Shown: positions 1 through 5,577, counted from the first letter of the stretch. The stretch is 5,577 nucleotides of DNA from a virus (IMGVR_UViG_2563366825_000014:1-5577); one strand, 5' to 3'. Notes: generated by a model not told the origin, from the sequence alone. Numbers and translations are program-made.

Positions 1-745
1 GACCTGCGGGGCCGGTTTCTCCCCGAGGGCCTGCGGGACCTGCCGGACCTGTTGCGCCGGGTTCACCTTTATCCCCTTTCGGGCCGGTTTGCCCTGCCGG
101 ACCCTGTGGTCCGGGTGGTCCGGGTGGTCCGGCCTCTCCACGTGGGCCGGTGTCACCTTTCGGCCCCGGCGGTCCGCCCGGGTCACCTTTATCGCCCTTC
201 GGTCCCTGTGGACCTGTTTCTCCCCGTTCTCCCTTTGGCCCCGGCTCACCTTTTGGTCCGACCGCCCCCGTTGCCCCGGCTGGTCCCTGTGCCCCTGTGG
301 CACCCTGTGGACCTGTGTCCCCCTTCTCGCCCGCCGGTCCCCGGGCATTCTCTGCCCGTTTCTTCGCTTCCTCTGCACTCGCCGCCGACGCTTCAGCACG
401 CTTCAGGATTTCCGCTGCCACCGCTTCCAGCTCTGCAAGCGCTTTCGGGTAATACTGCGCCTCATCCTGTTCCATCAGAAATTTATTCAGCGTTCCCGGC
501 TCAGAATCCGCCTTCACCAGAATGTCACCCACATACGACGGGGCGCACCCTTCCGTGTTCAGCGTCACCCGGTACCACCCCGGCTCCACATCAAAACTGT
601 AACTGCCGGTTTCCCCCGGCTGCCCCTGCGCCACCGTGGTGACTATCACTGTCTCTGTGGTGCGTCGCGCTTTCAGCTCTATGGTGCATCCCGGCACCGG
701 CTTCCCGGTGCCGTCCTTCAGCACGCCCGATATTCTGACTGTCAT
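1..745 (-). CDS. stf: Side tail fibre protein, lambda Stf-like: N-terminal domain (~135 aa) followed by collagen-like Gly-X-Y repeat region; partial, 3' end beyond window start
   Basis: ATG at 745..743 preceded by GGGAGA Shine-Dalgarno (plus 751-756 is its complement). Hand translation of the minus strand gives [38 protein letters not shown]..., which matches from memory the lambda Stf N-terminus ([17 protein letters not shown]...). From codon ~136 (plus 340 downward) the frame reads [113 protein letters not shown] and stays open to position 2. It is absent from the ORF track only because no stop lies inside the window. Confidence 0.85.
106..132. repeat. Perfect 3x tandem 9-bp repeat (GTGGTCCGG) inside the stf collagen-like region; encodes consecutive Gly-Pro-Pro / Gly-Pro-Gln triplets on the minus strand
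   Basis: Positions 106-114, 115-123 and 124-132 are each gtggtccgg. The unit length is a multiple of 3, so slippage would add or remove whole G-X-Y triplets in frame. Confidence 0.8.
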
Positions 746-758
746 AGATTTCTCCCAT

Positions 759-792
759 AAAAAAAAGCCCGCAGCAGTGACGCCACGGGCTT
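759..792 (-). terminator. Rho-independent terminator-like hairpin plus U8 tract, immediately upstream of the stf ribosome-binding site
   Basis: Minus-strand RNA reads AGCCCG-(14-nt loop)-CGGGCU followed by UUUUUUUU (plus 759-766 is an A8 run; stem arms are plus 766-771 and 786-791). The loop is longer than in a textbook terminator. Confidence 0.45.
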
Positions 793-825
793 CAGGACAG
801 TGTAACTTTACGTTTCCTCAAACGC

Positions 826-849
826 AGTTCATCACATGAGGCGGATGAA
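826..849 (-). other. Perfect 7-bp stem / 10-nt loop hairpin (GTTCATC...GATGAAC) in the lom-stf intergenic region
   Basis: Plus 826-832 gttcatc and 843-849 gatgaac are exact reverse complements. Not followed by a U tract, so not a terminator by itself. Confidence 0.4.
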
Positions 850-856
850 CCTGCGA

Positions 857-865
857 ATTATAACA
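857..865 (-). promoter_or_regulatory. Candidate sigma70 extended -10 element (TGnTATAAT) reading toward stf
   Basis: Plus 857-865 attataaca is the reverse complement of TGTTATAAT, a perfect extended -10. No convincing -35 hexamer, which is permissible for extended -10 promoters. Lies 32 bp downstream of the lom stop. Confidence 0.3.
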
Positions 866-896
866 ATGTTTGCAGAAGATAAATCGTCATATACTC

Positions 897-957
897 TCAG
901 AATCGGTATCCGGTGCCGACAATAAACGCATCCGTACGCCAGTCACCACGTCCTGAG
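897..957 (-). pseudogene. lom: Orphaned 3' end of lom (last 17 codons plus stop), separated from the rest of the gene by the IS insertion
   Basis: Minus-strand translation of 950..897 gives RGDWRTDAFIVGTGYRF-stop, which matches the lambda Lom C-terminus as I recall it (SGDWRTDGFIVGVGYKF). It is in frame with the 5' lom segment once the IS and one copy of the 7-bp repeat are removed. Positions 951-957 are the left copy of the target duplication. Confidence 0.85.
951..957. repeat. Target-site duplication, left copy (TCCTGAG)
   Basis: Identical 7-mer directly abuts both IS termini (951-957 and 3539-3545). The lom reading frame is continuous across the reconstructed empty site. Confidence 0.8.
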
Positions 958-1072
958 TGCGTATTACCGTGAAGGAGATCGGTGAGTAACATCGATGGAG
1001 ATCGGTTCGTGTCACTTTCACAGAACCGTTTTTAAATTACCTTCACTGATCTCCTTCGGTCAACGGAGATTG
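958..1072. repeat. Right end of the IS (downstream of istB): terminal inverted repeat plus sub-terminal repeats
   Basis: GGAGATC at 974-980 and 997-1003, its complement GATCTCC at 1048-1054, and a partial copy GGAGAT at 1065-1070. The 17-bp core TAACATCGATGGAGATC sits at 986-1002. Confidence 0.7.
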
Positions 1073-1792
1073 TATTTTCCGCATTGATTCTCCTTTAAGT
1101 TCGATCTTGATACTGCCATGAACCAGTCGATCTAGGATGGCATCCGCATGTGTGGAGTCTCCGATCATTTTGTACCAGTTTTCCACCGGCAACTGGCTCA
1201 CTACGATGATTGAGCCTCGTTGGTACATCAGATCCACTATTTCCAGCAGGTCGCTACGCTGTTCTGATGAGAGAGGTTCCAGCCCCCAGTCATCCAGAAG
1301 CAGCAGATCGCTATTATTCAGCCTGGTCAAAAGTTTGCTGTATCTTCCATCAGCATGCCCCTGATAGCACTGTTCCATCAGCGCTTTAAGGCGATAATAG
1401 TAGACCTTGTATCCCTGTCGGCAGGCATTATGACCAAGTGCACATGCCAGGAACGTTTTACCGCTGCCGGTGGCCCCGGTCAGTAAAATATTTTGTTTCA
1501 GGGTTAACCAGTTTCCCTGACTGAGTGAACGGATGAGGGCCCTGTCCAGCCCTCTATTGTTACGATAATCCAGCTTTGATAACTCAGCATTAAGTCTGAA
1601 CCGTGCATGTTTGATCAGACGCTCTGCCTTCCTGTTTTCACGGCAGGTTAGTTCTTCTGCTGTCAGTAATGACAGGCGTTCTTCGAAGCCCAGCTCCTGG
1701 TATGTGCCCGGCTGAGCAAGTTGCTTTTTAAGCGCATCACGGAAGCCGGTGAGTTTAAGTGCGGTCAGTTGTTCGTAAAGATGATTCATCAT
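1043..1792 (-). CDS. istB: IS21-family helper ATPase IstB (249 aa)
   Basis: Walker A motif GATGSGKT (in LLTGATGSGKTFLACALG) and Walker B-like LLLLDDWG are visible in the translation. Start lies 11 nt downstream of the istA stop, the usual IS21 arrangement. Confidence 0.93.
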   Translation of the reverse strand: MMNHLYEQLTALKLTGFRDALKKQLAQPGTYQELGFEERLSLLTAEELTCRENRKAERLIKHARFRLNAELSKLDYRNNRGLDRALIRSLSQGNWLTLKQNILLTGATGSGKTFLACALGHNACRQGYKVYYYRLKALMEQCYQGHADGRYSKLLTRLNNSDLLLLDDWGLEPLSSEQRSDLLEIVDLMYQRGSIIVVSQLPVENWYKMIGDSTHADAILDRLVHGSIKIELKGESMRKIQSPLTEGDQ

Positions 1793-1803
1793 TGGATCCC
1801 GTA

Positions 1804-3345
1804 TCAGTGGTAATACTCACTGCCGCGTACGTTTTCGTGTTCCATCGTGGATAACAGATCTGGTTTTGGATCCTGAACAGGTTGTTTATCCAGACCTTTT
1901 TCCAGGATCGATTTAATACCTGACAGACGCCATACCTTTGTTTTCAGAGCTCTTGCACATGCTGCATTAAGTCTGGCTTTACTGTATTTTTTATGAAGGT
2001 TCAGGAGTCCAAGGCAGAAGCGATAGCTTTGTTCCGGATGTGGACGAGAGTTCAGTATATGAAGCACATAACTATGAGTTTCACTGCCTATGTGCCCCGC
2101 CCATTCCAGAAGACGCTCTGGCGTCCAGGTGGCATGCTGTCGATGAGCTTCAGGCATGTGCTCGTTGCGGGTACTGTAGCCATAAGTACGCTTGCGCGGG
2201 TGCACAGCAACCTCCTGCCCCTGATTGAAGAGTCTTACCAGTTCTCCGGAGATCCATGCTTCCAGTTGCTGGCCTAACAGCGAACATGGAACCGAGTAGT
2301 AATGTTTGTCGATTTCCACGTGGTAATCGGCATGAACTCTGACTTTCTTCACCAGGGTGTAACTGTAACTGGCTTCAGGAAGAGGCTTCAGTGCGGGTTT
2401 ATCAAGCTGGATGAAGAGTTCTGCACGTGAATAACCCAACTTCTGCATTATTTTGTTATTCAGTCTTTCCAGCAACTCCCGAATGCGCTGATTAAGCGAT
2501 GCAAGGCTGTAGAAGATCTCATGCCTGATTCGGGCCATGATCCAGCGTTCAACAACCTGAACGCCAACTTCAGCTTTGGCTTTATCTTTCGGTTTACGTG
2601 GCCGCGCAGGCAAAACTGCGACATTATAATGCTCAAGCATCTGCTGGTAGGTAGGGTTAACGTCAGGATCATACTTACATGCCCTGGATGTGGCGCTTTT
2701 CAGATTGTCCGGAACAACAAGTTCAGGAACGCCACCCAACCACTGGAAGCAGCGAACATGACTCATCACCCAGTCTTCAAGCTGCTGAGACCAGGTGGCC
2801 TCTGCCCATGTGTAACTTGATGCCCCGAGAACAGCTACGATGACCTGAGCAGTTCTTATTTCTCCGGTCTCAGGGTCGGTAACGCCAACGGTAGGTCCAC
2901 AGTAATCAACGAAAAGTTTTTCGCCAGCTTTATGTACCTGACGCATTGATGGTGAAGTGGTTTTGAGCCATTCACGGTACATCCGGCAGTAATGGTTATA
3001 GCTGTAAAAACCGCCTGGATTACGCTCACAGTATTCTTCCCAGAGTAGCTGCAGCGTCACGCATTTATTACGCAGTTCCCGGTGTACTGTAGCCCAGTCA
3101 GGCAGAGAGTGCTTCTTCATCTTAACCTGGGTCTGAAGGAACGCATGTTTTAGTTTTGTATCATCCCATCCTGTAGGTAAGGGCCACTGCTTTATGCCAA
3201 GTTGAGCCGCCCGATTAGCATATCTGGATACAACGGAAGGGGAGATTGCAAGACTACGACCAATTTGTCGATGGCTGAGTCCAACACCGTATTTAAGCCT
3301 AAGAATTTCTTTAAGTTTTCTCATAGAAATTGGAACTGTTGGCAT
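1804..3345 (-). CDS. istA: IS21-family transposase IstA (513 aa), DDE-type
   Basis: N-terminal helix-turn-helix-like segment (LSHRQIGRSLAISPSVVSRY). Candidate catalytic acidic residues in FVDYCG, VVPDNLKSA and KAEVG contexts. AGGA-like Shine-Dalgarno 6-8 nt upstream of the ATG at 3345. Size and position directly upstream of istB. Confidence 0.93.
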   Translation of the reverse strand: MPTVPISMRKLKEILRLKYGVGLSHRQIGRSLAISPSVVSRYANRAAQLGIKQWPLPTGWDDTKLKHAFLQTQVKMKKHSLPDWATVHRELRNKCVTLQLLWEEYCERNPGGFYSYNHYCRMYREWLKTTSPSMRQVHKAGEKLFVDYCGPTVGVTDPETGEIRTAQVIVAVLGASSYTWAEATWSQQLEDWVMSHVRCFQWLGGVPELVVPDNLKSATSRACKYDPDVNPTYQQMLEHYNVAVLPARPRKPKDKAKAEVGVQVVERWIMARIRHEIFYSLASLNQRIRELLERLNNKIMQKLGYSRAELFIQLDKPALKPLPEASYSYTLVKKVRVHADYHVEIDKHYYSVPCSLLGQQLEAWISGELVRLFNQGQEVAVHPRKRTYGYSTRNEHMPEAHRQHATWTPERLLEWAGHIGSETHSYVLHILNSRPHPEQSYRFCLGLLNLHKKYSKARLNAACARALKTKVWRLSGIKSILEKGLDKQPVQDPKPDLLSTMEHENVRGSEYYH

Positions 3346-3400
3346 AGGTATCCTTTACCGGAATGGCAAAAGATACAGATCAACACACCTGTGAAGTTCC

Positions 3401-3538
3401 AATAACATTGATGGAGATCACTGAATAACAAAATGAGTCAAAAGTGATCTCCATCGATGTTATTCAGCGATCTGTTCAAATGTTATTACCCGATCTCGAT
3501 GGAAGTTATTGAGTGATCTCCTTTCATGAAAATACGCA
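3401..3538. repeat. Left end of the IS (upstream of istA): terminal inverted repeat plus multiple sub-terminal repeats, including a 22-bp inverted pair
   Basis: 3401-3422 aataacattgatggagatcact and the reverse complement of 3443-3464 (aataacatcgatggagatcact) differ at one position. Further GATCTCC/GGAGATC copies at 3413-3419, 3446-3452 and 3515-3521, and a partial copy at 3491-3497. Confidence 0.75.
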
Positions 3539-4084
3539 TCCTGAGGCTTCATAAGCCAGGTCGACCACGATATTTTCTGTCGGGTTAATCTGCACGCCTG
3601 CACTGTATGTCAGTGCGGTATGGCTGCGGCGTCCGCTGTCCGAACGGGTCAGGTGCTCCTGCTTTTTACCCTCATCTGACGTGAGGGTCACATAATCACC
3701 GGCAAAAGACGACACCCGGGCATACGACACTCCGGCCAGCGCATAAGCGCTGAACCATTCATTCACGCGCACAGATGGCCCCGCCATCACGCTGAACCAG
3801 CGGTTACGCACAGAATCCTCATGCCAGCGGGTATCGTTGTAGTGCGTTTTTTGCTCACCTTCAGCATTGGCATAACTGAATGACGTAATCAGCCCCAGCG
3901 TGTCCGTAAATTCATAACGGTATTTCACGTTAATCCCGTTCAGATCATCACTACCGGTAGTGTTCGTCAGGGCATGAAGATACCCCGCACTCAGCGTGGC
4001 CTGCTGCTCAGACGCCCATGCAGGCGCACCGGATACGGCCAGACAGATGGCTGCGGACAAAATGGCTGCACAAACTTTACGCAT
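3524..4084 (-). pseudogene. lom: lom-type outer-membrane protein gene (Lom/Ail/PagC/OmpX family), 5' 182 codons intact, C-terminus replaced by 4 IS-encoded residues (CVFS) and a stop inside the IS terminus
   Basis: Translation MRKVCAAILSAAICLAVSGAPAWASEQQATLSAGYLHA... closely matches the lambda Lom signal peptide and mature sequence from memory. GAGAGG Shine-Dalgarno upstream of the ATG at 4084. Lom homology ends at 3539; codons 3536..3524 lie within the IS. Confidence 0.88.
3539..3545. repeat. Target-site duplication, right copy (TCCTGAG)
   Basis: See left copy at 951-957. Confidence 0.8.
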
Positions 4085-4106
4085 AATTACCTCTCGCTTT
4101 TCTGCA

Positions 4107-4133
4107 ATAAAAAAGGCACCATTTCTGGCGCCC
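4107..4133 (-). terminator. Rho-independent terminator between J and lom (tJ-like)
   Basis: Minus-strand RNA reads GGCGCC-AGAAAU-GGUGCC (6-bp stem with one G-U pair) followed by UUUUUUAUU. Lies 19 nt after the J stop codon. Confidence 0.5.
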
Positions 4134-4151
4134 GTATCTGGGTTATAAAAT

Positions 4152-5577
4152 TCAGCTAATCGTGATGCCTGCAGTGGCTTTCTTCATCACCACAACCAGC
4201 AAATCGCTGATACTTGCTGTGGGATACCAGTTATTTACCAGCCATGCTGACACCGAAAACTCCAGTGTCATGTGACCGTGACCGGCAGGCATATCAATAA
4301 CGCCACTGTAAATCAGCGTATTATCCAGCGCGGTACGGTTATAAATTTCAGCACCGTTTTTCCGCACTATCAGACGGCATGAGGAGTAAATATCAGTATG
4401 CTCTCTCTCATGCTTAGCGCCACTGAATGCCACCGCCGGAATAACAATCTGCCGGTCAAACGGCTGATCGTCATAAACCCTGACGGTAATGGTCCCTGAT
4501 GGCCACCGCTCCGGTGCACGGGAATCCCGGGGGAAAGCTTTGCCCACTGTTTTAACGAGATCGCCTTCAATCTGGTTCGCGGACAGTTTTCCCAGAACCC
4601 GACAGTTCTCGTTAATCGTGACGTTGTTGAGCGTCCCGGAATTCGCATTCACGTTACCGCTGATATCAGCATTTCTTGCGGTCAGCCTGCCCTCCGGCGT
4701 CAGGGAAAACGTCGGGGGATTGCCGGACGAGGTGATACTCACCGCAAACAGCCGCTTCAGGAACACATCGTTCATGAACAACTGATTCCCCTGCGCCACA
4801 AATAACGGCGTGGTGTTGCCGTCCTCCGGGTTAATCATCGCAATACGGTCAGCCAGCAGCAGTATGTTGCTCAGGGGCTGGCCATCAGTATCCTCAATCC
4901 CCGCTCCAATACCGGCAACATAGGGTATGCCATTTTTTGTTTTCTGTACCTTCAGCATGTAAAGTGCAGCAAGGTCATCATTTGTGTCCTTCTGCACGCG
5001 CTGTATCTGCTGTATGGTGGCGCTCTGGTCCTCCAGCGTTTTACTGACCGTCTGTGTGATTTCATTGCGGGTTTCTGTGATGGTGGTCTGCATTTCCGCC
5101 ATCTCGTCCTTCAGCTTGCTGTTGTCAATCTCTGCCCACAACGCCTCTGCCAGATGTGTTTTTCCTATCTTTTCCCGGAAAAACTCCAGATAGCCCGCAG
5201 CATCATTGCTCGCCCGTCCACTGGCTTCCACAAAAGCAGATTTACCCACCAAGTTGACGCTGCGCACATAAAACCAGAAATCCTTTCCGGGCTTAATGTG
5301 CGGACCGGAGACACTCCACTGACTGCCGGTCCCCAGATAACGGGCAGAGGTTTCCACCTGTGCGGCGTCTGCAATTTTTGCCTCCGAAAACCAGAACTCA
5401 AACTGCACCGTCGGGTCATAAATGGTCAGTTTCGGGACTGCCGTTATCTGAAAATACCCCGGCGTCAGTTCAACACCGGCAGGCGCTGCCGGTGCGTTAA
5501 TCCGGAACGTGGTGGTGGCGGGTTCGCCCTGCTGGCCATAGCTGTTAATCGCCCTGACCGTCAGGGTGTATTCCCCG
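4152..5577 (-). CDS. J: Central tail fibre / host-specificity protein, lambda gpJ-like, C-terminal ~475 codons; partial, 5' end beyond window end
   Basis: Frame is open from the window edge (5576) to the stop at 4152. The M at 5408 in the ORF track is an internal GTG, not the start. Translation contains ...[27 protein letters not shown]...YLGTG...[17 protein letters not shown]...VAGIG...[19 protein letters not shown]...[15 protein letters not shown]...DMPAG..., matching the lambda J C-terminal region as I recall it. Position upstream of lom matches lambda gene order. Confidence 0.88.

Follow-up and report, generated by a model that had tools for sequence, protein, structure and literature searches.

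The DNA analysed here, referred to as the window, is a 5,577-nt stretch of viral sequence (IMGVR_UViG_2563366825_000014:1-5577) that carries genes of a lambdoid tail module. The C-terminal 474 residues of J (PF24489, PF09327 and PF12421) are encoded first, followed by lom (PF06316), which lies immediately upstream of stf, the side tail fibre gene, on the same strand. This J-lom-stf order is the order of phage lambda, and in relatives stf is followed by a gene for a DUF4376 protein, a putative assembly gene. In three relatives (L001, L002 and L077), the DUF4376 gene is in turn followed by a gene annotated as 'YadA C-terminal domain', which corresponds to the Eib immunoglobulin-binding protein of P-EibA-type prophages.

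The lom gene is interrupted by a copy of ISEc12 (IS21 family, ~2.58 kb; 958-3542, minus strand) that shares 99.96% identity with the one in E. coli NCTC9112. The element contains istA (3345-1804, minus strand) and istB (1792-1043, minus strand), and splits lom into an N-terminal part (4084-3524, minus strand) and a C-terminal remnant (~957-898, minus strand). When aligned to an intact lom, the two flanks overlap by 7 bp, and this overlap probably represents the target-site duplication. ISEc12 is oriented as the late tail operon and sits just upstream of stf, and may therefore affect stf expression. In NCTC9112, the ISEc12 copy is located between the DUF4376 gene and the YadA C-terminal domain gene, not in lom. 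A terminator-like hairpin (764-793, minus strand) is present between lom and stf, inside the expected single late transcript; it comprises 13 pairs (7 G-C), and the T8 run behind it stops only a few bases short of the stf ribosome-binding site. A single such hairpin was found, against 0.2 expected in shuffled sequences.

The two parts of the window have different best relatives. The segment from ~630 to 5577, comprising J, the interrupted lom and the first ~115 bp of stf, matches many E. coli prophages, including those of ST131 strains, at ~92% and with the same IS insertion. The segment from 1 to ~630, comprising the remainder of stf, is 98-99.6% identical to P-EibA-type prophages, several of which have no lom between J and stf. 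The change of best relative at ~630 points to a recombination junction inside the region of stf that encodes its N-terminal PfN domain.

The stf gene starts with an ATG at 745-743 on the minus strand, 5 nt downstream of a Shine-Dalgarno-like GGGAGA read from the sequence (751-756, minus strand), and its frame remains open for 248 codons (1-745, minus strand) to base 1, where it runs off the window. Residues 1-134 (344-745, minus strand) match all 134 positions of the Pfam PfN profile (PF08400, positions 1-134 of 134, E 2.1e-42), and residues 136-248 match the Pfam Collagen profile (PF01391, E 1.4e-18). The PfN domain can be subdivided into a collar or attachment domain (~aa 1-91) and a helical neck (~aa 92-135). 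Specifically, residues 1-91 match chain Ta, 'Tail fiber protein', of PDB 9e7m, which is Ur-lambda gpStfN (E 9.1e-30), and lambda orf-401, the 5′ part of stf, is 53% identical to the window protein over aa 1-129. At the DNA level, the window is 98% identical to P-EibA orf-401, and its identity to chromosomal genes of E. coli that carry the annotation 'prophage tail fiber N-terminal domain-containing protein' is 98-99.6%; it is also close to the phage isolates PhiR5_1 and PhiR12. Three plus-strand ORFs (52-642, 89-760 and 150-452) were rejected as frame artefacts of the GC-rich repeat; Pfam and homologue support is confined to the minus frame.

The PF08400 match, the identity to lambda orf-401, the match to PDB 9e7m and the J-lom-stf order all bear out the original prediction of an Stf-like protein. 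On the open frame, the two Pfam matches and the homologues, positions 1-745 (minus strand) very likely encode the N-terminal half of a collagen-like side tail fibre from a lambdoid prophage, belonging to the EPcl family and, within it, to the EPclC type represented by P-EibA ORF-401, which works and varies in length as proposed below. The gene is known here from its first 248 codons, so the intactness, expression and assembly of this stf copy lie outside the content of the window.

The same protein might instead be a collagen-like adhesin or virulence factor of the bacterial surface, carried as prophage cargo in the manner of streptococcal Scl, with repeat variation serving the antigenic or adhesive variation of the bacterium. 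Related prophages do encode genuine surface cargo in neighbouring genes, namely Eib/YadA-like proteins and Lom, and collagen-like bacterial surface proteins with variable repeats exist, as exemplified by Scl1/Scl2 and BclA. However, the protein begins with the lambda Stf collar domain, seen attached to the tail in the Ur-lambda cryo-EM structure, and its gene is placed in the late tail operon, flanked by J/lom and a tail-fibre-assembly-like gene. Furthermore, the sequence starts exactly like lambda Stf and thus has no signal-peptide-like N-terminus, and Ghosh et al. concluded from electron microscopy (EM) that proteins of this kind are side-tail proteins (PLoS One 7:e37872). We therefore consider a bacterial adhesin highly improbable and treat the protein as a side tail fibre.

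The EHEC prophage collagen-like proteins EPclA-D were defined by Ghosh et al. in 2012, with P-EibA ORF-401 (479 aa) and E. coli ED1a ECED1_2081 (520 aa) as members of EPclC; the same study reported that the lengths of the Col domains differ by multiples of three residues, and noted a GXPGGPXG interruption as conserved (PLoS One 7:e37872). Its biochemistry covered EPclA and EPclB, not EPclC; recombinant EPclA is trimeric and shows the CD signature of collagen, a melting point of 42 °C and a hinged stalk or dumbbell appearance in EM, as established by CD, AUC and EM (PLoS One 7:e37872). The stf described here is thus an ordinary, published kind of prophage tail fibre, for which the family, the break and the triplet length variation were already known.

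The Gly-X-Y region of the window protein comprises 113 residues (aa 136-248; 340-2, minus strand), made up of 37 triplets, one extra Gly and a final Gly. By direct count, Col1a contains 18 uninterrupted Gly-X-Y triplets (aa 136-189; 179-340, minus strand), and Col1b contains 19 triplets and one Gly up to the window edge (aa 191-248; 2-175, minus strand). The register break at their junction reads G-D-P-G-G-P-P (aa 187-193; 167-187, minus strand), with Gly aa 194 completing the motif; the extra Gly is a one-residue insertion, encoded by the adjacent codons GGC GGA at 178-173 (minus strand). Pro occupies the X position in 19 of the 37 triplets, and the commonest Y residues are Lys, Thr and Ala. 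In near-identical full-length homologues, the first collagen domain (Col1) ends 8 residues beyond the window, at aa 256. The original prediction had described a minus-strand Gly-X-Y domain of at least 113 residues with a single register-shifting Gly at 173-178 that continues past the window; translation and Pfam confirm the coordinates, the count and the strand, translation confirms the extra Gly, and the homologues ending at aa 256 support the continuation.

The GG break is present in 38 of the best 120 homologous protein clusters, and takes the form G-x-P-G-G-P-x-G in 36 of these 38. Judged by sequence, the break is a trait common to the family, not a lesion peculiar to this copy. The extra Gly would be present in all three chains of a trimer and should perturb the helix locally, most likely making a kink or flexible point in the shaft.

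Tandem Repeats Finder (TRF) identifies a perfect 3 × 9-bp tandem repeat at 106-132 (minus strand; period 9, 3.0 copies, 100% matches) with the unit GTGGTCCGG. On the coding strand, the repeat consists of three copies of CCGGACCAC and encodes (A)GPP-GPP-GP(Q). A perfect 27-nt period-9 tract is rarely obtained by chance: shuffling of the 37 nine-nt triplet units yields one with P = 0.00085, and re-encoding of the protein according to the codon usage of the region itself yields one with P = 0.0013, which argues for a recent duplication rather than a chance match. The proposed three perfect 9-bp copies are therefore verified by TRF and stand out in shuffle tests (P ~0.001), while the accompanying description of the underlying DNA as highly repetitive holds for the 9-bp array and is otherwise only loosely true, since the remaining direct repeats in 1-345 are only 63-74% identical.

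To count copies in close relatives, we searched for the exact 15- and 17-nt flanks of the array separated by a gap of 9-39 nt, which corresponds to 1 to 4 copies. Among IMG/VR viral contigs, 14 of 17 alleles have two copies and three have three copies; among metagenome contigs, the corresponding numbers are 48 and nine of 57. Over both collections, 62 of 74 alleles have two copies and 12 have three, so that the window carries the minority allele (~16%). No 1- or 4-copy form was detected among 74-78 close-relative alleles in this 9-39 nt gap scan, and the flank pattern gave no match in a collection of one genome per species. Every gap in the IMG/VR viral-contig alleles corresponds to whole repeat units, and the frame stays open. 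The invariant repeat number in homologues that would have spoken against length variation at this site is thus not what is observed.

Individual genomes illustrate the two states. The allele of NZ_CP075632, which is 98.7% identical, has a 9-bp gap exactly in the array and thus two copies (AGPPGPQ), whereas the allele of strain KY204 has three; likewise, the phage isolate PhiR5_1 has three copies and the PhiR12 phages have two. Alleles that are otherwise 98.7-99.6% identical carry either two or three copies. In the best 30 E. coli genome matches, the aligned span is 751 bp in 27, 760 bp in two and 750 bp in one. The genome IMGVR_UViG_643348545 contains four prophage copies of this stf type (L004, L008, L013 and L019), two with three repeat copies and two with two. 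Both alleles thus coexist in a single cell, where gene conversion between them is possible. The 2/3-copy polymorphism at 106-132 is the only item we did not find described in the literature, and is a minor detail.

Copy-number differences in a GC-rich low-complexity region could in principle arise from sequencing or assembly errors. Coverage is low (2-6x) for many of the metagenome contigs, the 750-bp span in one complete genome suggests a 1-bp error, and PGAP miscalls one intact copy of the gene as a pseudogene. Nevertheless, a 27-bp array is far below any read length, which makes collapse unlikely; each difference is an exact 9-bp unit that keeps the frame open; and both states recur in independent complete genomes, isolated phages and metagenomes of different studies. 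In view of the independent recurrence in complete genomes and phage isolates, we rejected assembly artefact as the source of the two states, an explanation to which we attach almost no credence.

The haplotypes that carry the two states are closely related. The commonest 3-copy haplotype and the commonest 2-copy haplotype are identical over 410 flanking bp (300 upstream and 110 downstream), and a 2/3-copy pair is likewise present on an upstream background that is very different. Furthermore, for each of five 3-copy alleles there is a 2-copy counterpart only 3-9 substitutions away over ~1.5 kb, and these five pairs lie on backgrounds with different lengths of the second collagen domain (Col2) and even different C-terminal domains. 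The data fit recurrent slippage as well as they fit one event spread by recombination. The term 'hotspot', as used in the original prediction, denotes a high rate, and the two states observed (two and three copies) fit a rare event equally well. A contingency locus, in the sense of a hypermutable simple-sequence repeat, was rejected, as there are only three units and only two allelic states among the 74-78 alleles.

In one account of this pattern, the difference between two and three copies is a single old duplication or deletion that was moved among genomes by lambdoid prophage recombination, so that the site itself is mutationally inactive and no useful hotspot. The presence of only two states, with no 1- or 4-copy form within the scan, accords with this account, as does the shortness of an array of three 9-bp units. 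The gene is also a mosaic, with different upstream N-termini and C-terminal domains joined to the same Col1b, and recombination alone could therefore place one event on many backgrounds. On the other hand, the 3-copy state is associated with five or more distinct downstream backgrounds and with an upstream background that is very divergent; all of these are also found with two copies a few substitutions apart, and a single origin would thus require many recombinations with breakpoints close to the repeat. In addition, microhomology-flanked indels of triplet blocks are frequent in the same gene, showing that the process operates here. We regard a single old event as possible, though less probable than not, and favour slippage together with recombination.

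The length variation extends well beyond the 9-bp array. We parsed the modules of full-length alleles by regular expression, which was successful for 52 of 65 alleles; the other 13, with other C-terminal or fused collagen domains, were inspected by eye. The 52 parsed alleles fall into 23 length classes, and the variation resides in the collagen segments. In particular, the stretch of Col1 after the break ranges from 46 to 76 residues and Col2 from 85 to 127 residues, both changing by steps of three. In contrast, all 52 parsed alleles have a linker of 60 aa between the collagen domains and a C-terminal domain of 94 aa, the great majority have an N-terminal part of 135 aa, and 50 of the 52 have exactly 18 triplets ahead of the break.

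To define the indel spectrum, alleles at least ~98.9% identical were aligned pairwise at the DNA level to one reference; those with a different N-terminus or C-terminal domain, which give meaningless small gaps, were ignored. The indels among alleles at least 98.9% identical are 9, 18, 27, 36, 45 or 54 bp long and are flanked by direct repeats of 2-18 bp, as exemplified by a 45-bp deletion between 12-bp repeats. Larger rearrangements are also present. One allele (614 aa) duplicates the end of Col1 and the Pf2 linker in tandem, two alleles (420 and 423 aa) lack the linker, so that Col1 is fused to Col2 in one collagen domain of ~140 residues, and at least three unrelated C-terminal domains, presumed to bind receptors, are joined directly after Col2. 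The alleles with a duplicated or deleted linker or a swapped C-terminus are L037, L047 and L021 (metagenome contigs) and L006, L011 and L077. The anticipated variation in fibre length between related phages is thus evident from the 23 length classes among 52 parsed alleles, and the anticipated recombination from the duplicated or deleted inter-collagen linker and the different C-terminal domains after Col2. Together, these comparisons support the view that the collagen-coding repeats can serve as substrates for slippage and for unequal or modular recombination.

The repeats also touch on annotation. In NZ_AP045180 (strain JNEC-KY204; L001, 6016-7533), RefSeq/PGAP splits stf into two pseudogene fragments ('missing C-terminus'), while the ORF is open over 505 codons and contains all domains. 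Probably, the collagen repeats and their indels misled the annotation into a false pseudogene call.

Based on homology, we propose the following working of the fibre. The PfN domain would anchor the fibre to the tail, as does the lambda Stf collar domain, and would be followed by a short helical neck. The Gly-X-Y sequence would then form a homotrimeric collagen triple helix that serves as the proximal shaft and replaces the Ala/Ser-rich coiled coil of lambda, a shaft function that we infer by analogy with EPclA. A collagen helix rises 0.286 nm per residue, or ~0.86 nm per triplet, and a coiled coil ~0.15 nm per residue. With ~121 residues at 0.286 nm per residue, the Col1 shaft would be ~35 nm long, and the G-D-P-G-G-P-P-G interruption would be the site of the kink or flexible point. 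In full-length relatives, a Pf2 tail-fibre repeat would connect Col1 to a second collagen shaft, and a C-terminal domain would form the tip.

Length variation would arise from the short, similar 9-nt units, on which replication slippage and unequal recombination may add or remove whole triplets. The 3 × 9-bp array at 106-132 would represent one such event, the duplication of a GPP triplet, which corresponds to ~0.86 nm of shaft. Only whole-triplet, in-frame changes would be expected to survive, since other changes would break the triple helix. The shaft role of Col1, a kink at the GG break and a slippage mechanism are all predictions from sequence and from related proteins.

A further extension of this proposal is that the collagen shafts act as a tunable spacer under diversifying selection, in which Col1a and the break form a fixed hinge, Col1b and Col2 fit the tip to the thickness of O-antigen or capsule, and the 9-bp array is a recurrently slipping source of variation within lineages. 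If this were true, each triplet would alter the reach by ~0.86 nm and rotate the distal tip by ~36-51 degrees (10/3 and 7/2 triple-helix models). We consider such a selected spacer unlikely.

The census of 74 scanned alleles indicates that the published triplet length variation of EPcl proteins holds for this gene and for this exact 9-bp repeat, and adds little beyond confirmation. The locus could be used as a small typing marker for P-EibA-type prophages, which is of modest practical value, and is one at which annotation pipelines produce false pseudogene calls. Should an effect of shaft length on adsorption or host range be demonstrated, the natural 2- and 3-copy alleles and the alleles with larger indels would be ready test material.

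Among known systems, EPclC is the closest. The window protein shares with it the PfN domain (PF08400), the Gly-X-Y domain (PF01391), the GXPGGPXG break, the location in a lambdoid prophage tail module and the multiple-of-three Col lengths; in full-length near-identical relatives, the Pf2 repeat, the second collagen domain and a non-PfC C-terminus are shared as well. Specifically, the relatives L001 and L002, which are 98.7-99.6% identical over the window part, match PF03406 (E 4e-16) and have no PF06820 match, and L002 (520 aa) is composed of PfN, Col1 with the GG break, a PF03406 Pf2 repeat with a short helical stretch, Col2 and a C-terminal domain of ~94 aa. There is no substantial difference from EPclC; the window allele has one extra GPP triplet (three instead of two 9-bp copies) and is represented by its first 248 codons only.

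The lambda side tail fibre is encoded by orf-401/orf-314 in lambda PaPa and is intact in Ur-lambda. In the cryo-EM structure of Ur-lambda (PDB 9e7m, Sci Adv 2025 eadw7914), twelve Stf N-terminal domains form a collar round the tail that carries four trimeric side fibres, each comprising a flexible linker, a proximal coiled coil (residues 102-393), a hinge (394-422) and a distal part. The fibre described here shares the homologous N-terminal collar and neck, the Pf2 motif (GVVQLSS...TPKAVK) and the position after J and lom, and is predicted from homology to be likewise a trimeric fibre with a jointed shaft. Lambda Stf aligns at aa 1-129 and realigns at the Pf2 motif (L002 aa 242-293 versus lambda aa 339-390), which places Col1 in the position of the lambda coiled coil, roughly aa 130-340. 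The proximal shaft is thus an α-helical coiled coil in lambda, whereas the corresponding stretch here is Gly-X-Y, a shaft swap that is the defining trait of EPcl proteins. Although lambda has ~220 coiled-coil residues and the fibre here ~120 collagen residues, the two segments would span a similar length of ~33-35 nm at textbook rises. The distal part also differs, as does the assembly gene (the DUF4376 gene in relatives, tfa in lambda).

Collagen-like repeats are also found in the antireceptors or tail fibres of Streptococcus thermophilus and lactococcal siphophages (Desiere et al. 1998; Duplessis and Moineau 2001, as cited in PMC7242381 and PMC5601072), and, according to these secondary accounts, those in the host-recognition proteins of S. 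thermophilus phages were proposed as recombination hotspots. In the Guarani virophage, a spontaneous in-frame 81-nt deletion in the collagen-like ORF8 (Sputnik/Guarani) changes host range. As in the present gene, Gly-X-Y sequence separates functional domains of host-recognition proteins in the streptococcal and lactococcal phage and virophage systems, and whole repeat blocks are lost in frame. In contrast, those proteins and hosts are unrelated and have no PfN or Pf2 domain, and it is in those systems that a phenotypic effect of repeat loss is demonstrated.

Finally, Scl1/Scl2 of Streptococcus pyogenes and BclA of Bacillus anthracis form stalks of unhydroxylated Gly-X-Y triple helix whose repeat number is polymorphic among strains. 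They carry secretion and anchoring signals and reside in the cell wall or exosporium, whereas the protein described here has a tail-attachment domain and belongs to a virion fibre.
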